From Candidatus Poribacteria bacterium (GTDB lineage: Bacteria; Poribacteria; WGA-4E; WGA-3G), in the NCBI GenBank assembly GCA_963666305.1, contig OY762722.1:5092812-5156811 (forward strand): a DNA stretch of 64,000 nt, given 5' to 3'. Below the pieces are notes generated by a model. It did no database searches and was not told the origin of the DNA. It worked only from the letters and a program-made list of their open reading frames with translations. Positions 17,861 through 49,436 of the stretch are shown in pieces (positions within the stretch are counted from its first letter, which is position 1; every line of letters starts with the position of its first letter). A program made the position numbers and the translations under genes.

Positions 17861-18051
17861 ACCCAAGTTGCCAGTTTCCATTTACTTAGAAGAAACACCC
17901 AAGCAAAAACCCTCTACGGGGTGCAGTTCCTTAAATACCCGATTTTCTATTCTCACTGCGAAGCAATACCACCCCTACGGGGTGTAAGAGATGTTTTTCC
18001 TTGAAAAATCCGTGTTGAAACGTCCATGACCTATTAGGTGGCAACTTGGAT
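17861..18051. mobile_element. 191-bp MITE with 13-bp TIRs and 7-bp target duplication
   Basis: acccaagttgcca / tggcaacttggat (12/13); taggtta at 17854-17860 and 18052-18058. Confidence 0.7.
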
Positions 18052-44282: not shown

Positions 44283-45572
44283 ATGGACACAGCAAGAATT
44301 CAGGTCAAAGCAGGCGATGGCGGGAACGGATGCATCAGTTTCCGCCGAGAAAAGTACGTTCCTCGCGGCGGTCCCGATGGCGGGGACGGTGGCAACGGCG
44401 GAAACGTCCGCCTCGTCGCTACCCTTTGGATGAGTACGCTGATCGATTTGCATCATAATCCGCGTCAGGTCGCTGAAAACGGGGGACACGGCATGGGCAA
44501 GCAAAAAGACGGTGCCGATGGCGCAGATTGCGTTGTTAGAGTCCCTGCTGGCACCATCGTCAGAGACTCAGAAACGGCCGAATTGCTTTCAGATCTGACG
44601 GAGCCTGATGACACTGTTGTTGTCGCGCGTGGGGGAATTGGCGGTAAAGGCAATGCCCGTTTTAAGAGCAGTACCTTTCAGGCCCCGCGCGTTGCAGAAA
44701 AAGGGGAACCCGGAGAAGCACGCGAAATAAGTCTTGAAGTCAAACTCATCGCCGATATTGGGTTGGTCGGCTATCCGAACGCCGGTAAATCGACACTGCT
44801 GGCGCGCACCTCTGCCGCGACCCCGAAAATCGCTGCCTATCCATTCACCACACTCCGTCCGAATCTGGGTGTCGTCCGCATCAATCGGGAGCAGAATTTC
44901 GTACTCGCCGACATTCCAGGGTTGATAGAAGGCGCGCACGAAGGCGCAGGCTTGGGGCATCAATTCCTGCGGCACATCGAGCGCACCAAGATGCTGATAC
45001 ATGTCATCGATCTGAGCGCGACAGATGGACGAGACCCGATTGAGGACTACGAACAACTCAACCTTGAACTGGAGCATTACAACGAACTGTTGACAAAACT
45101 CCCACAAATCATCGCTCTGAATAAGATAGATATGCCGGAAGCTACGGCGAATTTGGAACGCGTCCAAAAATATTTCGGTAAGCGGAAAGTCTTCCCTATC
45201 TCCGCTGTTACAGGCGAAGGCGTGAACCCACTCATACAACAAGCGTACCGCTCCTTACAATATCTTGAAACACGCGCCCGAAAGGAAGCCGAGACAACGA
45301 TTGTCTTTGAGCCGGAAATTCCATCGGAGCCGCGCGCACGGTTTGAACTTGCTGAGGCACAGGAAGGGTTTGTTGTCAGCGGTGAAGAACCTCGCCGCGC
45401 CGTTCTCATGACCGACATGGAAAACGAGCAAGCACTGATTCTGCTGTACCGGAAACTGAAAAGGATCGGAGTGATTAACGCACTGGAACGCGCAGGTGCA
45501 GTGGAAGGAGACACCATTCAGATTGATGAATTTGAGTTCACCTATAGTCCACGAGCAATGCGATCCAGTTGA
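44283..45572 (+). CDS. obgE: GTPase ObgE/CgtA
   Basis: FRREKYVPRGGPDGGDGG, GYPNAGKST, YPFTT, DIPG, NKID, C-terminal OCT domain. Confidence 0.97.
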   Translation: MDTARIQVKAGDGGNGCISFRREKYVPRGGPDGGDGGNGGNVRLVATLWMSTLIDLHHNPRQVAENGGHGMGKQKDGADGADCVVRVPAGTIVRDSETAELLSDLTEPDDTVVVARGGIGGKGNARFKSSTFQAPRVAEKGEPGEAREISLEVKLIADIGLVGYPNAGKSTLLARTSAATPKIAAYPFTTLRPNLGVVRINREQNFVLADIPGLIEGAHEGAGLGHQFLRHIERTKMLIHVIDLSATDGRDPIEDYEQLNLELEHYNELLTKLPQIIALNKIDMPEATANLERVQKYFGKRKVFPISAVTGEGVNPLIQQAYRSLQYLETRARKEAETTIVFEPEIPSEPRARFELAEAQEGFVVSGEEPRRAVLMTDMENEQALILLYRKLKRIGVINALERAGAVEGDTIQIDEFEFTYSPRAMRSS

Positions 45573-46689
45573 ACAGCGTGTCTGTTTGTCGGACGTGAAA
45601 CGCATTGTTGTAAAAGTTGGCAGCAGTACCATTTCCGAAGGAGCACATCTCAACGAAGATGCACTCCATGGGCTTGTCCACGATTTAGCACTCGTTAAAC
45701 AGGACGGTGTAGAGGTTATCCTCGTCACATCCGGGGCAATCGCCGCGGGCTGGCCCCGACTCGGTTTGAAACAGCGTCCGCAGACGCTACCGCGCTTACA
45801 AGCCGCCGCCGCCGTTGGACAGATCGAGTTGATGGCAGTCTACGAGGAACTATTTCGCAACTATGGACAGCGGACGGCACTCATGCTGCTCACACGCGAC
45901 GATTTTTCCAACCGAGAACGCTACACCCGCATGAACGACACAATGCGCGCCCTCCTACATCTCGGTGTGATTCCGATTATCAATGAAAACGATACAGTCG
46001 CCGTGGACGAGATTCGGGTTGGTGATAACGATACCCTCTCTGCTTATGTAACGAACCTCGCCCAAGCACAACTCCTCGTCATCCTTTCAGATCAGGCTGG
46101 TTTTTACACCGCAGATCCGAGACACGATCCTAACTCGGAATTGATACACACTGTTACAACCATCTCAAAGGCAGTCTGGAAAGCCGCCGGGCAAGCTGGC
46201 ACAACAAGCGGCACTGGCGGGATGGTGACGAAATTGCAAGCCGCTGATATCGTCACCGGATCAGGAGAGATGATGGTGTTGGCATACGGACAGGAACCGC
46301 TCGTCGTAACAAGGCTCTTGAAAGGCGAGCTTCTCGGAACGTTATTCCTTCCAAATTCGCGTATCTCTGGAAGGAAACGGTGGATCGCCTATTCACGCCC
46401 GCCTAAAGGCAGACTCTTTGTGGACAATGGCGCACGCGATGCCCTCGTGCAAGGTGGTAAAAGCTTACTACCTGCTGGCATCCGACGCGTTGAAGGTGAT
46501 TTCGACTATAGCGATACAGTCTCGTGCTTCACCGAAAACGGCACGGAATTCGCACGCGGTTTGGTGAACTATAATGCCATAGAGACAGCCAAACTCGCAG
46601 GAAAACACACCAAGCACATTGAGAATATTCTCGGCTACCGCGATTACGATGAAATCATACACCGAGATAATTTGGTATTACTCGACTAA
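45526..46689 (+). CDS. proB: Glutamate 5-kinase (start uncertain)
   Basis: VVKVGSS, VTSGAIAAG, INENDTV, GDNDTLS, GTGGMVTK, PUA domain. Confidence 0.95.
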   Translation: MNLSSPIVHEQCDPVEQRVCLSDVKRIVVKVGSSTISEGAHLNEDALHGLVHDLALVKQDGVEVILVTSGAIAAGWPRLGLKQRPQTLPRLQAAAAVGQIELMAVYEELFRNYGQRTALMLLTRDDFSNRERYTRMNDTMRALLHLGVIPIINENDTVAVDEIRVGDNDTLSAYVTNLAQAQLLVILSDQAGFYTADPRHDPNSELIHTVTTISKAVWKAAGQAGTTSGTGGMVTKLQAADIVTGSGEMMVLAYGQEPLVVTRLLKGELLGTLFLPNSRISGRKRWIAYSRPPKGRLFVDNGARDALVQGGKSLLPAGIRRVEGDFDYSDTVSCFTENGTEFARGLVNYNAIETAKLAGKHTKHIENILGYRDYDEIIHRDNLVLLD

Positions 46690-46701
46690 TTTTGTACATC
46701 T

Positions 46702-47478
46702 ACCTATCTGTGGACCGAAATAGGTAGCTCCGCTGGAGCAACTCAGGTTGGTATATTTGTGTATCTACAGACATTTTGCTCCGATGGAGCAAGGATAGGC
46801 ATTGTATTTTCTGTCGCGAACCAGAACTCTCTGTGCAACGAAACACGGAACTCCGTTGGAGCAACTCAGATTGGTATATTTGTGTATCTACAGACATTTT
46901 GCTCCGATGGAGCAAGGATAGGCATTGTATTTTCTGTCGCGAACCAGAACTCTCTGTGCAACGAAACACGGAACTCCGTTGGAACAACCACGCGCATTGT
47001 ATTTTCTGACATTAGGCAGAACCTATCTGTGGAACGAAACACGGAACTCCGATGGAGCAACTCAGATTTGTATATTTGTGTATCCACAGACATTTTGCTC
47101 CGATGGAGCAAAGATAGCATCGTATTCTCTGTCGCGAGGCAGAACCTGTTTGTAGAATAAAGCACGGTTTCCGTCAGGCAGAACCTATCTGTGGAACGAA
47201 ACACAGAACTCCGTTGGAACAACTCAGATTGGTATATTTGTGTATCCACAGACATTTTGCTCCGATGGAGCAAAGATAGCATCGTATTCTCTGTCGCGAG
47301 GCAGAACCTGTTTGTAGAATAAAGCACGGTTTCCGTCAGGCAGAACCTATCTGTGGAACGAAACACGGAACTCCGTTGGAACAACCACGCGCACTGTATT
47401 TTCTGCCGTTAGGCAGAACCTGTTTGTAGAATAAAGCACCCTGTGTCTCTTTTACTCCGTTAGGAGTTACCTATCTAT
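46702..47478. repeat. Mosaic palindromic repeat array (REP/BIME-like): 2 x 123 bp plus 2 x 162 bp built from shared modules
   Basis: Units start at 46741/46864 and 47060/47222; hairpin ttgctccgatggagcaa at 46776, 46899, 47095 and 47257. Confidence 0.9.
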
Positions 47479-47526
47479 AAAACCTGAAAACACAAAAATC
47501 GAAACATCCAAAAGAGGCGAATATCA

Positions 47527-48009
47527 ATGGCAAACACTTATATCCAACTTTACGTTCATATCGTATTTTCCGTTAAAGCGAGACATGCCCTGATACCTAA
47601 ACGCCACAAGCCAGAACTCCACCAATATATTACCGGTATCATCACAAATCGAAAACAAAAGGTTATTCAAATTAACTCAATGCCGGATCACATCCATATC
47701 CTCATCGGAATGACACCAGATATCGCGCTCTCAGATCTGGTGCAGTCTATCAAAATCGGCAGCACCCGATTCATAAATCGGCAGGGTTGGATCGCTGGAA
47801 AATTTCAATGGCAAGAAGGTTTTGGCGCGTTCAGTTATTCCCGCTCCCAGTTAAATACCGTCGTTGCTTACATCGAGAATCAGGAAGAACATCATTCTCA
47901 GCAGACCTTCCATGAGGAATATCTTGAGTTTCTGAAACGTTTCAACATCCCCTACGATGCAAAATACGTCTTTGATTTGGAAACACCGATCGAATCTCCC
48001 AGAAGATAG
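47527..48009 (+). CDS. tnpA: HUH Y1 transposase (IS200/IS605 TnpA or REP-associated RAYT-like)
   Basis: HIVFSVK, MPDHIHIL (HUH), WQEGFGAFS, YIENQEEHH catalytic Tyr. Confidence 0.9.
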   Translation: MANTYIQLYVHIVFSVKARHALIPKRHKPELHQYITGIITNRKQKVIQINSMPDHIHILIGMTPDIALSDLVQSIKIGSTRFINRQGWIAGKFQWQEGFGAFSYSRSQLNTVVAYIENQEEHHSQQTFHEEYLEFLKRFNIPYDAKYVFDLETPIESPRR

Positions 48010-48173
48010 ATTTGCGATACGACGGATATTCCTAACTTCGCTGGATGCCCGCACTTTTTTTACAACAAAATTTGGTTGTGCGACTCTGTTGAAAATTTTC
48101 TAAAATTTATGTTATAGTACCAATTACCATTTCCAATTACCGTCTACTTACGGCGACCTCTCAAAGGAACACT

Positions 48174-49436
48174 ATGAACGGAAACATCCAAGAATTGATC
48201 CAATCGCAGGCGCGAAAGGCAAAATCGGCAATGCGTGTTCTATCACGAAGTTCCGCCGATGTCCGAAACCACGCGCTCTTAGTAATGGCTGAAAGCTTAC
48301 AAAATTCCAAAGATAAAATTCAGGAAGCAAATCGCATTGATCTCGAAAACGGCGAAAAAACAGGACTCGCTGCGCCACTCATGCAACGCCTCCTATTGGA
48401 CGACCAGAAGATTGAACGCATGGTGGACAATCTCCGCCAAGTCGCCGCACTCCCCGATCCAATTGGCGCGATCATCAGTATGGGAGAACGTCCCAATGGG
48501 CTCAAAATTGGCACAGTCCGTGTGCCTATCGGTGTCGTCGCTGTGGTATATGAGTCGCGTCCCGACGTTACTGTTGAAGTATCGGCACTCTGCATCAAGT
48601 CCGGAAACGGGGTCATCCTCCGAGGCGGTTCCGAAGCCATTAACTCCAACGCAACGCTCGCGAGCCTCCTCAGCAATACCGCTGCTGCAGAAGGCGTACC
48701 AGATGCCATTCAGTTCGTTAACACAACCGACCGGCAAGCGGTCTATGAACTCATCCAATTGCCAGACTACGTTGACCTTATCATTCCACGCGGTAGCAAC
48801 GAATTCGTCCAGTTTTTGATGAAAAAATCCGATGTCCCGGTCTTAGGACATGCCGATGGCATCTGTCACATCTACGTTGATGAAGCCGCCGACCTTGACA
48901 TGGCAACCAAGATCTGCATGAATGCGAAAGTTGGCTACAAGGTTGCTGTCTGCAATGCCTTAGAGACACTCCTTGTCCATACAGATGCCGCCGAGAAATT
49001 CCTTCCCACTTTCTGTGACAAGCTACACGGTGCGGATGTTGAAATCCGTGGATGCGAACGAACACAGCAAATCTATCCGGCAGCGAAACCCGCGACCGAA
49101 GAAGATTGGCGGACAGAATACCTCGATTATATCTTATCCGTTCGGGTGGTAGACGACATGAGCACAGCCGTTGATCACATCGAAACCTACGGCTCACATC
49201 ATTCCGATGCGATTATCACCGAAAGTTACAGCGCGGCGCAACGGTTTCTCAAAGAGGTGGATTCCGCCGCAGTCTATGTCAATGCCAGCACTGCCTTCAC
49301 TGATGGCTATGAATTTGGATTAGGTGCCGAGGTCGGGATTAGCACACAAAAACTCCACTCCCGCGGACCGATGGGACTTGAGGGATTGACGACTTATAAG
49401 TATACCATCTACGGAGACGGTCAAGTGCGCGAGTAG
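48174..49436 (+). CDS. proA: Glutamate-5-semialdehyde dehydrogenase
   Basis: VPIGVVAVVYESRP, LRGGSEA, CNALET, GAEVGISTQKLHSRGPMGL. Confidence 0.96.
   Translation: MNGNIQELIQSQARKAKSAMRVLSRSSADVRNHALLVMAESLQNSKDKIQEANRIDLENGEKTGLAAPLMQRLLLDDQKIERMVDNLRQVAALPDPIGAIISMGERPNGLKIGTVRVPIGVVAVVYESRPDVTVEVSALCIKSGNGVILRGGSEAINSNATLASLLSNTAAAEGVPDAIQFVNTTDRQAVYELIQLPDYVDLIIPRGSNEFVQFLMKKSDVPVLGHADGICHIYVDEAADLDMATKICMNAKVGYKVAVCNALETLLVHTDAAEKFLPTFCDKLHGADVEIRGCERTQQIYPAAKPATEEDWRTEYLDYILSVRVVDDMSTAVDHIETYGSHHSDAIITESYSAAQRFLKEVDSAAVYVNASTAFTDGYEFGLGAEVGISTQKLHSRGPMGLEGLTTYKYTIYGDGQVRE

Follow-up and report, generated by a model that had tools for sequence, protein, structure and literature searches.

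The pairing of repetitive extragenic palindromes (REP) with REP-associated tyrosine transposases (RAYT) is the textbook example of a domesticated prokaryotic transposase. In E. coli, the tnpA-REP (RAYT) gene is reportedly flanked by clusters of REP and bacterial interspersed mosaic elements (BIME), an arrangement that Nunvar is said to have described in 2010. To our knowledge, all characterised REP/RAYT systems combine class-2 enzymes, carrying the motif Y---NP, with GTAG-tagged palindromes. The locus considered here lies between proB and proA in a 64,000-nucleotide stretch of DNA (the window; contig OY762722.1, positions 5,092,812 to 5,156,811) of a Candidatus Poribacteria genome, a 5.62-Mb single contig from a sponge-symbiont-type bacterium (G000 in the following), and consists of a solo tnpA gene of the Y1/HUH family preceded by an array of hairpin repeats. 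With a probability of about 0.7, it is interpreted as a REPtron-like locus, that is, a resident low-copy Y1/HUH nuclease gene of subclass 1.2 together with its partner hairpin repeats, of which only the left arm is present, in tandem-expanded form. According to Ton-Hoang et al. (2012, PMC3333891), E. coli REPtrons contain tandem BIMEs that vary, amplify locally, and may lose the gene while retaining the repeats.

Subclass 1.2 itself is listed as 'REP: no' in the accessible text of Quentin, Siguier, Chandler and Fichant (2018, PMC6006769), where it is described as generally free of IS200 terminal structures and mostly cyanobacterial and Bacteroidetes, with the motifs DH[IV]H, WQ and Y---Q--HH, a length of ~148 aa and a conserved ~30-aa C-terminal domain. 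In the portion of Bertels, Gallie and Rainey (2017, PMC5581495) available to us, IS200 Group 3 appears as RAYT-like, with no duplicates, no copies on plasmids and flanking 16-mers with 21 occurrences; from the accessible portions of both papers, subclass 1.2 is suspected to be this group. A literature search, with subscription journals outside its coverage, returned no later paper linking subclass 1.2 to repeats.

Homologs of tnpA (E<=1e-15) are present in 45 of the 65 genomes of the genus, in 1-4 copies each, and absent at the same threshold from five closed or nearly closed genus genomes; within the order, four of eight genera hold them (41 genomes). From the order-, genus- and further locus searches, 40 distinct intact homologs were taken, leaving out L006, L012, L015, L017 and L027-L030, which contain no intact open reading frame (ORF) fitting the motif pattern, as well as the duplicate fetches L051, L054, L055 and L064. 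GC-rich perfect hairpins of at least 5 bp stand on both sides of the gene in 36 of these 40 intact homologs; 25 of the 40 have an upstream hairpin whose inner 5 bp and loop are exactly reverse-complementary to those of a downstream hairpin. A second set, restricted to one genome per species and to the best 80 of 564 relatives, comprises 69 loci with an intact gene and full flanks, among which hairpins on both sides occur in 42 and the exact inverted pair in 20. Eight of the best 80 loci bear labels of other phyla (Verrucomicrobiota, KSB1, Acidobacteriota, Flavobacterium and others); seven of them are scorable, and six have small GC hairpins on both sides, mostly of the form GCTCC-loop-GGAGC, the remaining one (Flavobacterium) having hairpins downstream only. 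Compared with this REPtron bracketing of 36/40 and 42/69 relatives, the tnpA genes of the window and of the sister genome G068 have repeats on the 5' side only.

The family plan reads, upstream, hp2'-tATGTCTATAG, ~20 nt, hp1'-tATGT, 30-100 nt and the ATG, and, downstream, the stop codon, 5-40 nt, ACATA-hp1, ~22 nt and TTTTCTATAGACAT-hp2, with stems that differ by lineage (GCACTCC, GCACCCC, CGCTCC, GCCCC, GCCCT). In the presumed family state, the gene would stand between two diverging sets of ~50-bp units, the left set being the reverse complement of the right, and each unit would comprise a box CTA(T/C)A(G)ACAT, a 5-7-bp GC stem with a 3-nt loop and ~20 nt. When the hairpin type was placed as a label on the maximum-likelihood TnpA tree, 10 changes were counted (minimum 9), against a mean of 25.4 for shuffled labels, and 0 of 200 shuffles were as low; the hairpin type appears to follow the TnpA clade, the figure being inflated by shared ancestry. 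Furthermore, paralogs within one genome belong to different TnpA clades, each with its own hairpin type. The Pseudomonas REPIN/RAYT system (REPIN, inverted REP doublets) of Bertels and Rainey (2011, PMC3116915) likewise has several distinct enzyme paralogs in a genome, and each of them is paired with a repeat type of its own.

The TnpA protein matches Pfam PF01797 (Y1_Tnp) with 96.3 bits (cut-off 23) over profile positions 3-121 of 121, and carries the motifs D-H55-I-H57 (DHIH), W95-Q96 and Y115-IEN-Q119-EE-H122-H123 (YIENQEEHH). The motif residues, including H55/H57 and Y115, are invariant in alignments of 21 and of 40 homologs; aligned with ISDra2 TnpA, the HUH metal site and the single catalytic tyrosine are kept, and catalysis is predicted. 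The nearest solved structures are ISDra2 TnpA (4.7e-9) and IS608 TnpA (5.6e-6), and E. coli TnpA-REP is not among the PDB matches at E<=1. The C-terminal tail is conserved to about residue 150, with T127, F128, E131, Y132, L136, F139, Y143 and D150 invariant. By its motifs, length and C-terminal tail, the enzyme is classified as TnpA-Y1 subclass 1.2 (PMC6006769, Table 1). It does not carry the class-2 RAYT motif Y---NP, having YIENQ instead, and with NCBIfam REP_Tyr_transpos it scores 27.9 bits, under the cut-off of 80. The first-pass annotation had staked its reading on an enzyme outside the described RAYT/REP subgroups, and here the outcome is divided: TnpA does lie in an already described subclass, but this subclass is listed as REP-less in the accessible text of PMC6006769. 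The gene is single-copy in G000, and a dN/dS of 0.16 at dS 0.20 between G000 and its G068 ortholog points to purifying selection. The other Y1 genes of G000 are two IS200 copies and three class-2 RAYT-like genes, two of which are flanked by other hairpin types. The first (YIRNNP, 1985866-1986537) has GGCACGC-TCC-GCGTGCC hairpins on both sides and the second (YVLNNP, 2492703-2493452) has CGCAAACT-GTT-AGTTTGCG upstream only, both types recurring in the genome; the third (YCYENP) lies at 992200-992739. As RAYT-like genes with hairpins of their own are present, G000 holds several independent Y1-plus-repeat systems.

The first-pass description of the locus, a solo Y1 tnpA without tnpB, standing between proB and proA with a modular hairpin array on its 5' side only, agrees with the ORFs, the Pfam matches and Tandem Repeats Finder (TRF) (Table 1). 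In the ORF list of the window, tnpB is absent beside tnpA, because the next ORF after tnpA is proA, and no hairpin comparable to the array units was found 3' of tnpA when the downstream flank was read. The higher-order units that had been proposed, 123 bp x2 and 162 bp x2, were recovered by TRF at x2.3 each, and a second repeat search agrees with TRF, detecting the 162-bp repeat at 98%. That description is accurate, since the module count matches and nothing comparable lies downstream. Contigs from a short-read DNA run are interrupted within the array, where their summed depth is 2-4x, which is consistent with real repeats and does not prove the exact copy number.

Three kinds of module make up the array. 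The A hairpin, (T)TTGCTCC-GAT-GGAGCAA(A), occurs four times by module count (46775, 46898, 47094 and 47256), and these are its only exact copies in the whole 5.62-Mb genome. Since the A units match the family profile built without array seeds only marginally (E 0.0019 twice, 0.028 twice), they are diverged family members. The B stem-loops, TCTG..-loop-..CAGA, number eight (46810, 46933, 47005, 47128, 47168, 47290, 47330 and 47402), the stem-loop of the gene-proximal REP 2 being counted among them, and are followed by AAC and then CTGTTTGTAG or CTATCTGTGG; the tail of the B unit is the reverse complement of the CTACAAACAGGT box. The six C units start at 46728, 46851, 46974, 47047, 47209 and 47371 and are weak in single-stranded DNA (ssDNA) folds. 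Nearer to the gene, REP 2 has TCTGCC-GTGA-GGCAGA at the homologous position of G068, and REP 1 is conserved in both G068 and G014. As in BIMEs, forward A and C units are opposed to reverse B units, the whole is tandem amplified, and the copy number differs between strains. Robust structures in the array are limited to the 8-bp hairpin and to boxes of opposite orientation pairing with each other; the ssDNA fold of the 162-nt unit differs from shuffles by z of -1.8 on the plus and -1.3 on the minus strand, values too weak for claiming a composite structure. Exact 16-17-mers of the window hairpins are confined, genome-wide, to the array, and this copy therefore does not show the recurrent flanking 16-mers of Bertels.

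Table 1. Features of the locus and of one further element, in window coordinates (position 1 is the first letter of the window).
Feature	Position	Strand	Evidence and remarks
proB (glutamate 5-kinase) ORF	45496..46689	+	Pfam AA_kinase 5.1e-40 and PUA 1.5e-19; real start probably downstream of 45496
Repeat region, proB stop to tnpA	46690-47526		~820 bp of modular hairpin repeats
Inserted cassette, array and tnpA	46704..48024	+	~1.3 kb; empty sites in G024 and G006
123-bp tandem repeat x2.3	46707..46988	+	modules C-A-B; TRF, 94% matches, score 501
C unit	46728..46739	+	weak 4-5-bp hairpin CTCCGNTGGA(G/A)C; 6 in all
A unit 1	46765..46792	+	box CTACAGACAT, then hairpin TTTGCTCC-GAT-GGAGCAA
A unit 2	46888-46915	+	box CTACAGACAT or CCACAGACAT precedes each A hairpin
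162-bp tandem repeat x2.3	47014..47385	+	modules B-C-A-B; TRF, 97% matches, score 716
A units 3, 4	47084-47112, 47246-47274	+	box CCACAGACAT
B unit (reverse-oriented REP)	47128..47155	+	TCTGTC-GCGA-GGCAGA and tail ACCTGTTTGTAG
Gene-proximal reverse REP 2	47401..47429	+	TTCTGCC-GTTA-GGCAGAA (47401-47418) and CCTGTTTGTAG
Gene-proximal reverse REP 1	47454..47480	+	ACTCC-GTTA-GGAGT (47454-47467) and TACCTATCTATAA; 59 nt ahead of ATG
tnpA, intact Y1/HUH gene	47527..48009	+	160 aa; Pfam Y1_Tnp E 1.8e-27
15 nt, cassette end or degenerate target copy	48010..48024	+	3 filled vs 4 empty junctions
Native proB-proA spacer	48025..48173	+	aligns at 88-93% to G006 and G024 spacers
Promoter-like site TTGAAA-18-TATAGT ahead of proA	48089-48118	+	consensus scan 10/12; conserved
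proA (glutamate-5-semialdehyde dehydrogenase)	48174..49436	+	Pfam Aldedh 6.8e-20
Miniature element, 187 bp	17863-18049		inverted termini AACCCAAGTTGCCA ... TGGCAACTTGGAT

The element conserved across the family is the box CTA(T/C)AGACAT, which stands 5' of the hairpin on the strand with the loop GCT. In the array, GTAG or GTGG follows CAGA-type hairpins 3' on the plus strand (47029, 47152, 47191, 47314, 47353 and 47426), and CTAC or CCAC precedes the four strong A hairpins, which is equivalent to GTAG/GTGG 3' on the minus strand. These array motifs are the reverse complement of the family box CTA(T/C)AG. Among the 51 dispersed copies, the box positions outside the seeding pattern, (C/T)TATAG before ACAT, are occupied by T in 32, A in 39, T in 36, A in 43 and G in 38, and the CTAC form is a minority (8/51). 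The class-2 arrangement, GT[AG]G at the 5' foot of the palindrome, is not seen; the box (C/T)TATAG-ACAT lies 4-7 nt from the stem. Because CTATAG is self-complementary and CTAC is rare, the substrate strand and the guide or cleavage side are not readable from sequence alone. The first-pass annotation was right that GTAG/GTGG lies 3' of hairpins in the array, but the 'inverted guide geometry' that it derived from this is not established, given the palindromic family box CTATAG, in which (A/G)TAG is readable from both sides. As the box is conserved across clades with differing stems, it is the most plausible candidate for where the chemistry takes place, and specificity would come from the stem and loop, a proposal modelled on IS608 and TnpA-REP. 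Beside the same hairpins, many units (G000 2462980-2463380, and relatives) show an alternative box, ATTGCTTCGCAGTGAGAATAG in place of ATGTCTATAG, which looks like a 15-nt insertion within the box.

Outside the array, units consisting of CTATAGACAT and a 7-bp stem are dispersed between genes in G000 and across the genus. A profile built from 42 non-array seeds detects 50 family copies outside the array in G000 (E<1e-3), and with array seeds included it detects 55 copies, 4 of them in the array. Only 5 of 51 copy centres fall in stop-to-stop ORFs of at least 150 codons, though such ORFs cover 86.8% of the genome, and the other 46 lie outside them; the window's own proximal hairpins are not dispersed, and the A units are marginal. 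Two 15-mers are widespread: CACTCCGCTGGAGTG, of the CACTCC...GAGTG type, with 27 copies in G000 and presence in 62/65 genus genomes, and CACCCCGTAGGGGTG, of the CACCCC...GGGGTG type, with 45 copies and presence in 49/65, the reversed-pattern controls giving 0-1. One further A-B-A-B locus is found in G000, near 3.361 Mb. The earlier proposal of a hairpin cluster that resembles REP/BIME and belongs with a solo Y1 gene is supported.

The hairpin families of G000 show a strong orientation bias, with profile matches outside the array at 38 minus/13 plus and CACCCCGTAGGGGTG at 39 forward/6 reverse; two unrelated 17-mers are also strand-biased (17:6 and 17:3). Replication-strand bias was considered as a reading of unit orientation and set aside, the cumulative GC skew being irregular with no clean replichore switch. 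Near 3704150-3704250 of G000, beside a hairpin doublet, two ~30-nt repeats end in CTACAGGGTTGAAA(C), reminiscent of the end of a CRISPR repeat.

The proB-proA region was compared by DNA search of the 65 genus genomes, local alignments and junction reading. Array and tnpA form an inserted cassette with the left junction at 46703|46704 (+-2) and the right junction between 48009 and 48024; native spacer sequence is found again from a point between 48010 and 48025, either directly at the tnpA stop or 15 nt past it. The empty site reads CATCTAC|GGATATTCC in G024, and G006 is likewise empty, so that the insertion between otherwise adjacent proB and proA genes, as anticipated in the first-pass annotation, is evident. 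The cassette may lie between the copies of a ~13-bp degenerate direct repeat, ATCTGCCGAACGG. Besides G000, only G068 and G014 have the cassette at this site, and most genus members have proB-proA spacers without such an array. About ten genomes without tnpA here have spacers of 1.1-1.4 kb (among them G005, G009, G015, G041, G046, G052, G055, G073), G079 has a repeat-carrying miniature element in its spacer, and G006 has a 10-bp microsatellite, TGATTTCGCT x4, directly 3' of the proB stop.

In G068, the left arm is 220 bp long and unduplicated; it consists of a pair of forward units, a single reverse CTGCC unit and the ACTCC unit next to the gene. The left arm of G014 has expanded in another way, with duplication extending even to the 5'UTR block, and the tnpA of this genome is 5'-truncated, leaving residues 76-160. 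In G000, the arm carries the duplications of 123 bp and 162 bp. Since the three sister states differ, the array is the fast-changing part of a fixed locus. Tandem duplication and rapid change of the array thereby support one half of the earlier claim that the system was caught amplifying and recombining its substrate; the other half, causation by the enzyme, does not follow from them. The right arm is wholly missing only in the window lineage (G000, G068 and the G014 remnant). At some other sites where relatives carry a gene, nothing but repeats remains in G000: there are relics at 106.3 kb, and at 2.463 Mb, where G068 has the gene, an array of 8 units. The region around ~98-107 kb of G000, which itself has hairpin relics only, is a hot spot, with a subclass-1.2 gene beside the orthologous genes in G063, G072, G077, G075, G078 and G024. 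A definition of clean cassette ends by comparing the relatives' copies with G000 was attempted and abandoned, as most sites have undergone replacement or rearrangement and are neither cleanly filled nor cleanly empty.

Alternatively, the locus could be a decayed insertion sequence (IS) of the IS200 type, whose gene and left end transposed together and whose right end was lost, the hairpins being mere IS ends. In favour of this, G024 and G006 lack the cassette and show it to be inserted, the protein exceeds the NCBIfam IS200 cut-off (73 vs 55 bits), and homologs occur at differing loci with a patchy distribution, some as fragments or with stops. This explanation is nevertheless judged quite unlikely, as no near-identical copies occur within any examined genome, closed ones included, and the paralogs belong to different clades; the dN/dS value given above was obtained at a fixed locus; and ~50 copies of these hairpin units stand without the gene. 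Moreover, the left and right hairpins are mutually reverse-complementary (exactly so in the 25 homologs mentioned) rather than same-strand left-end and right-end hairpins, the Y motif has the HH signature of the non-IS subclass 1.2, and the genuine IS200 copies of G000 encode a different protein (YVENQ, no HH). With IS608 and ISDra2 (subclass 1.1) the system shares, by sequence, the fold family, as well as small subterminal hairpins with a conserved site a few nt away. It differs from IS200/IS605 elements in the absence of multiple identical copies, the inverted hairpins on two sides, the HH signature with C-terminal tail and the many units without a gene.

Several observations weigh against the REPtron-like interpretation. 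The 27- and 45-copy hairpin types of G000 flank TnpA clades that G000 lacks, and the five closed genomes without the gene still hold 14, 0, 4, 19 and 0 unit copies. The proximal hairpins and the B motif are essentially private to the locus (8 matches in G000, 6 of them in the array, 4 in G068 and 5 in G014; controls 0-2), and the A units become marginal members of the family once they are excluded from its profile. Unlike E. coli REPtrons, the cassette moved or was captured as a unit. Finally, many units lie inside elements of 145-190 bp with inverted termini AACCCAAGTTGCYAC and 7-8-bp direct target repeats, of which G000 has at least 15 complete examples, and the gene of the GCACCCC clade sits between two of these in inverted orientation. 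Four or five of the G000 elements are identical 156-bp copies with two units each, which indicates recent movement by a DDE-type transposase. One of the complete elements lies in the window (Table 1); its hairpin units belong to the CACCCC-TAC-GGGGTG type, and it also contains a TTTTTC-CTT-GAAAAA hairpin. No full-length element with the inverted repeat of the miniature elements was obvious among 89 termini, one pair lying 920 bp apart.

The enzyme could be a bystander, with the units spreading as cargo of DDE-moved elements bearing terminal inverted repeats (TIR) and target site duplications (TSD), the arrays arising by slippage, and the pairing of gene and hairpins reflecting insertion preference or hitch-hiking. 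The miniature elements and the gene enclosed by two of them favour this scenario, as do the two abundant types without a cognate gene in G000 and the 8-unit array at the site where G068 has the gene. Inverted flanks are, on the other hand, also found where no such TIR is seen (GCCCC types; the Verrucomicrobiota, KSB1 and Flavobacterium loci), and the window array lacks this TIR as well. Hairpin type tracks the TnpA clade, and the protein is under purifying selection with all catalytic residues kept. On balance, the bystander role is considered unlikely.

Under the REPtron-like interpretation, a cassette of left arm and gene would have landed in the proB-proA spacer of the window lineage, the right arm having been lost up to the stop codon. 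The left arm would comprise two gene-proximal reverse units (ACTCC-GTTA-GGAGT and CTGCC-GTTA-GGCAG), with forward units (CTACAGACAT plus TTGCTCC-GAT-GGAGCAA) beyond them; reverse and forward units would form REPIN/BIME-like inverted pairs, and recent tandem duplication (123 bp, 162 bp) would have followed. The enzyme may bind the folded hairpin on ssDNA and cut in or near the box, as IS608 TnpA and E. coli TnpA-REP do, and its activity may seed or maintain the repeats. The growth of the array itself may be due to slippage or unequal recombination.

A further alternative is that the array serves the pro operon chiefly in cis, at the level of RNA or transcription, as a cluster of terminators or stabilisers co-transcribed with proB, with the transposase gene incidental. 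RNA-library contigs, from the libraries X15 and X16 of one study and the run X17, give neither strand, ends nor levels, and DNA carry-over is possible. Two of them bridge proB into the array (46506-46757 and 45967-46710), and two cover tnpA (47484-48939 in X16, reaching into proA, and 47492-48223 in X15); X17 has no tnpA cover and is uninformative. Taken together, they provide no more than a weak hint of transcription. Three B hairpins with T-rich tails are terminator-like, four sites being counted against 1.6 +- 1.4 in shuffles. The rarity of the array in genus proB-proA spacers, the conserved promoter-like site that proA retains, the weak fold scores, the absence of any Rfam match at E<=1 in 46500-48300 and the unstranded nature of the contigs, with possible DNA carry-over, make this role extremely improbable. 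For the same reasons (no Rfam match, weak folds, unstranded contigs only), the structured RNA co-transcribed with the pro operon that the first-pass annotation had envisaged finds no support.

In comparison with E. coli REPtrons as presented in the accessible text of PMC3333891, the system has the same solo low-copy Y1 gene, inverted flanking hairpins, repeats dispersed between genes, strain-variable tandem clusters, local amplification and gene loss with repeats left behind. It differs in its enzyme, which carries Y---Q--HH rather than Y---NP; in its repeat, which sets a CTAYAGACAT box at a distance of 4-7 nt from a short perfect stem, where E. coli has a long imperfect palindrome with GTAG at its foot; in its units, mostly head-to-tail with a ~50-bp period; and, for the window copy, in one-sided repeats inserted as a cassette. 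Like the members of subclass 1.2 in the accessible text of PMC6006769, the genes show the corresponding motifs, encode ~150-160 aa with a conserved C-terminal tail, lack tnpB and occur in few copies, which diverge from one another within a genome; unlike that subclass as published there, they (Poribacteria-labelled, plus a few from other phyla) are bracketed by inverted hairpins that are also dispersed. With the Pseudomonas REPINs, in the available part of PMC3116915, the system shares inverted pairs as the likely mobile unit, a form which the A-B pair of the array has, whereas copy numbers are far lower here, doublets are mostly direct and tandem, and many lie in TIR/TSD elements. Judging from sequence features, the locus behaves like REP/RAYT yet lacks the RAYT hallmarks (Y---NP, GTAG at the foot).

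A more far-reaching proposal, which is tentative and rather doubtful, is that the subclass-1.2 enzymes form a second branch, either independent or ancestral, of domesticated nucleases that handle REPs, and that they have a recognition design of their own, a short perfect hairpin with an offset CTAYAGACAT box (IS608-end-like geometry), whose units would multiply head-to-tail at ~50 bp, pair as REPIN-like A-B doublets and hitch-hike in TIR/TSD miniature elements. If this were true, one repeat would be spread by the joint action of two unrelated kinds of transposition chemistry, and the subclass-1.2 group would be the missing link between IS200 and RAYT hinted at by Bertels et al.

For the family as a whole, the significance of the locus is that an IS200-like subclass recorded as repeat-less shows the full REPtron syndrome in a candidate phylum, with inverted flanks, clade-specific hairpins, dispersed extragenic copies, local amplification and gene loss leaving relics. 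The locus provides an insertion that is dated and has empty sites for comparison, one array in three states among sister genomes, and units travelling in TIR/TSD elements, and it offers a simpler biochemical substrate, a 17-nt hairpin with a 10-nt box. It bears on the question of whether Y1 enzymes were domesticated once or several times.

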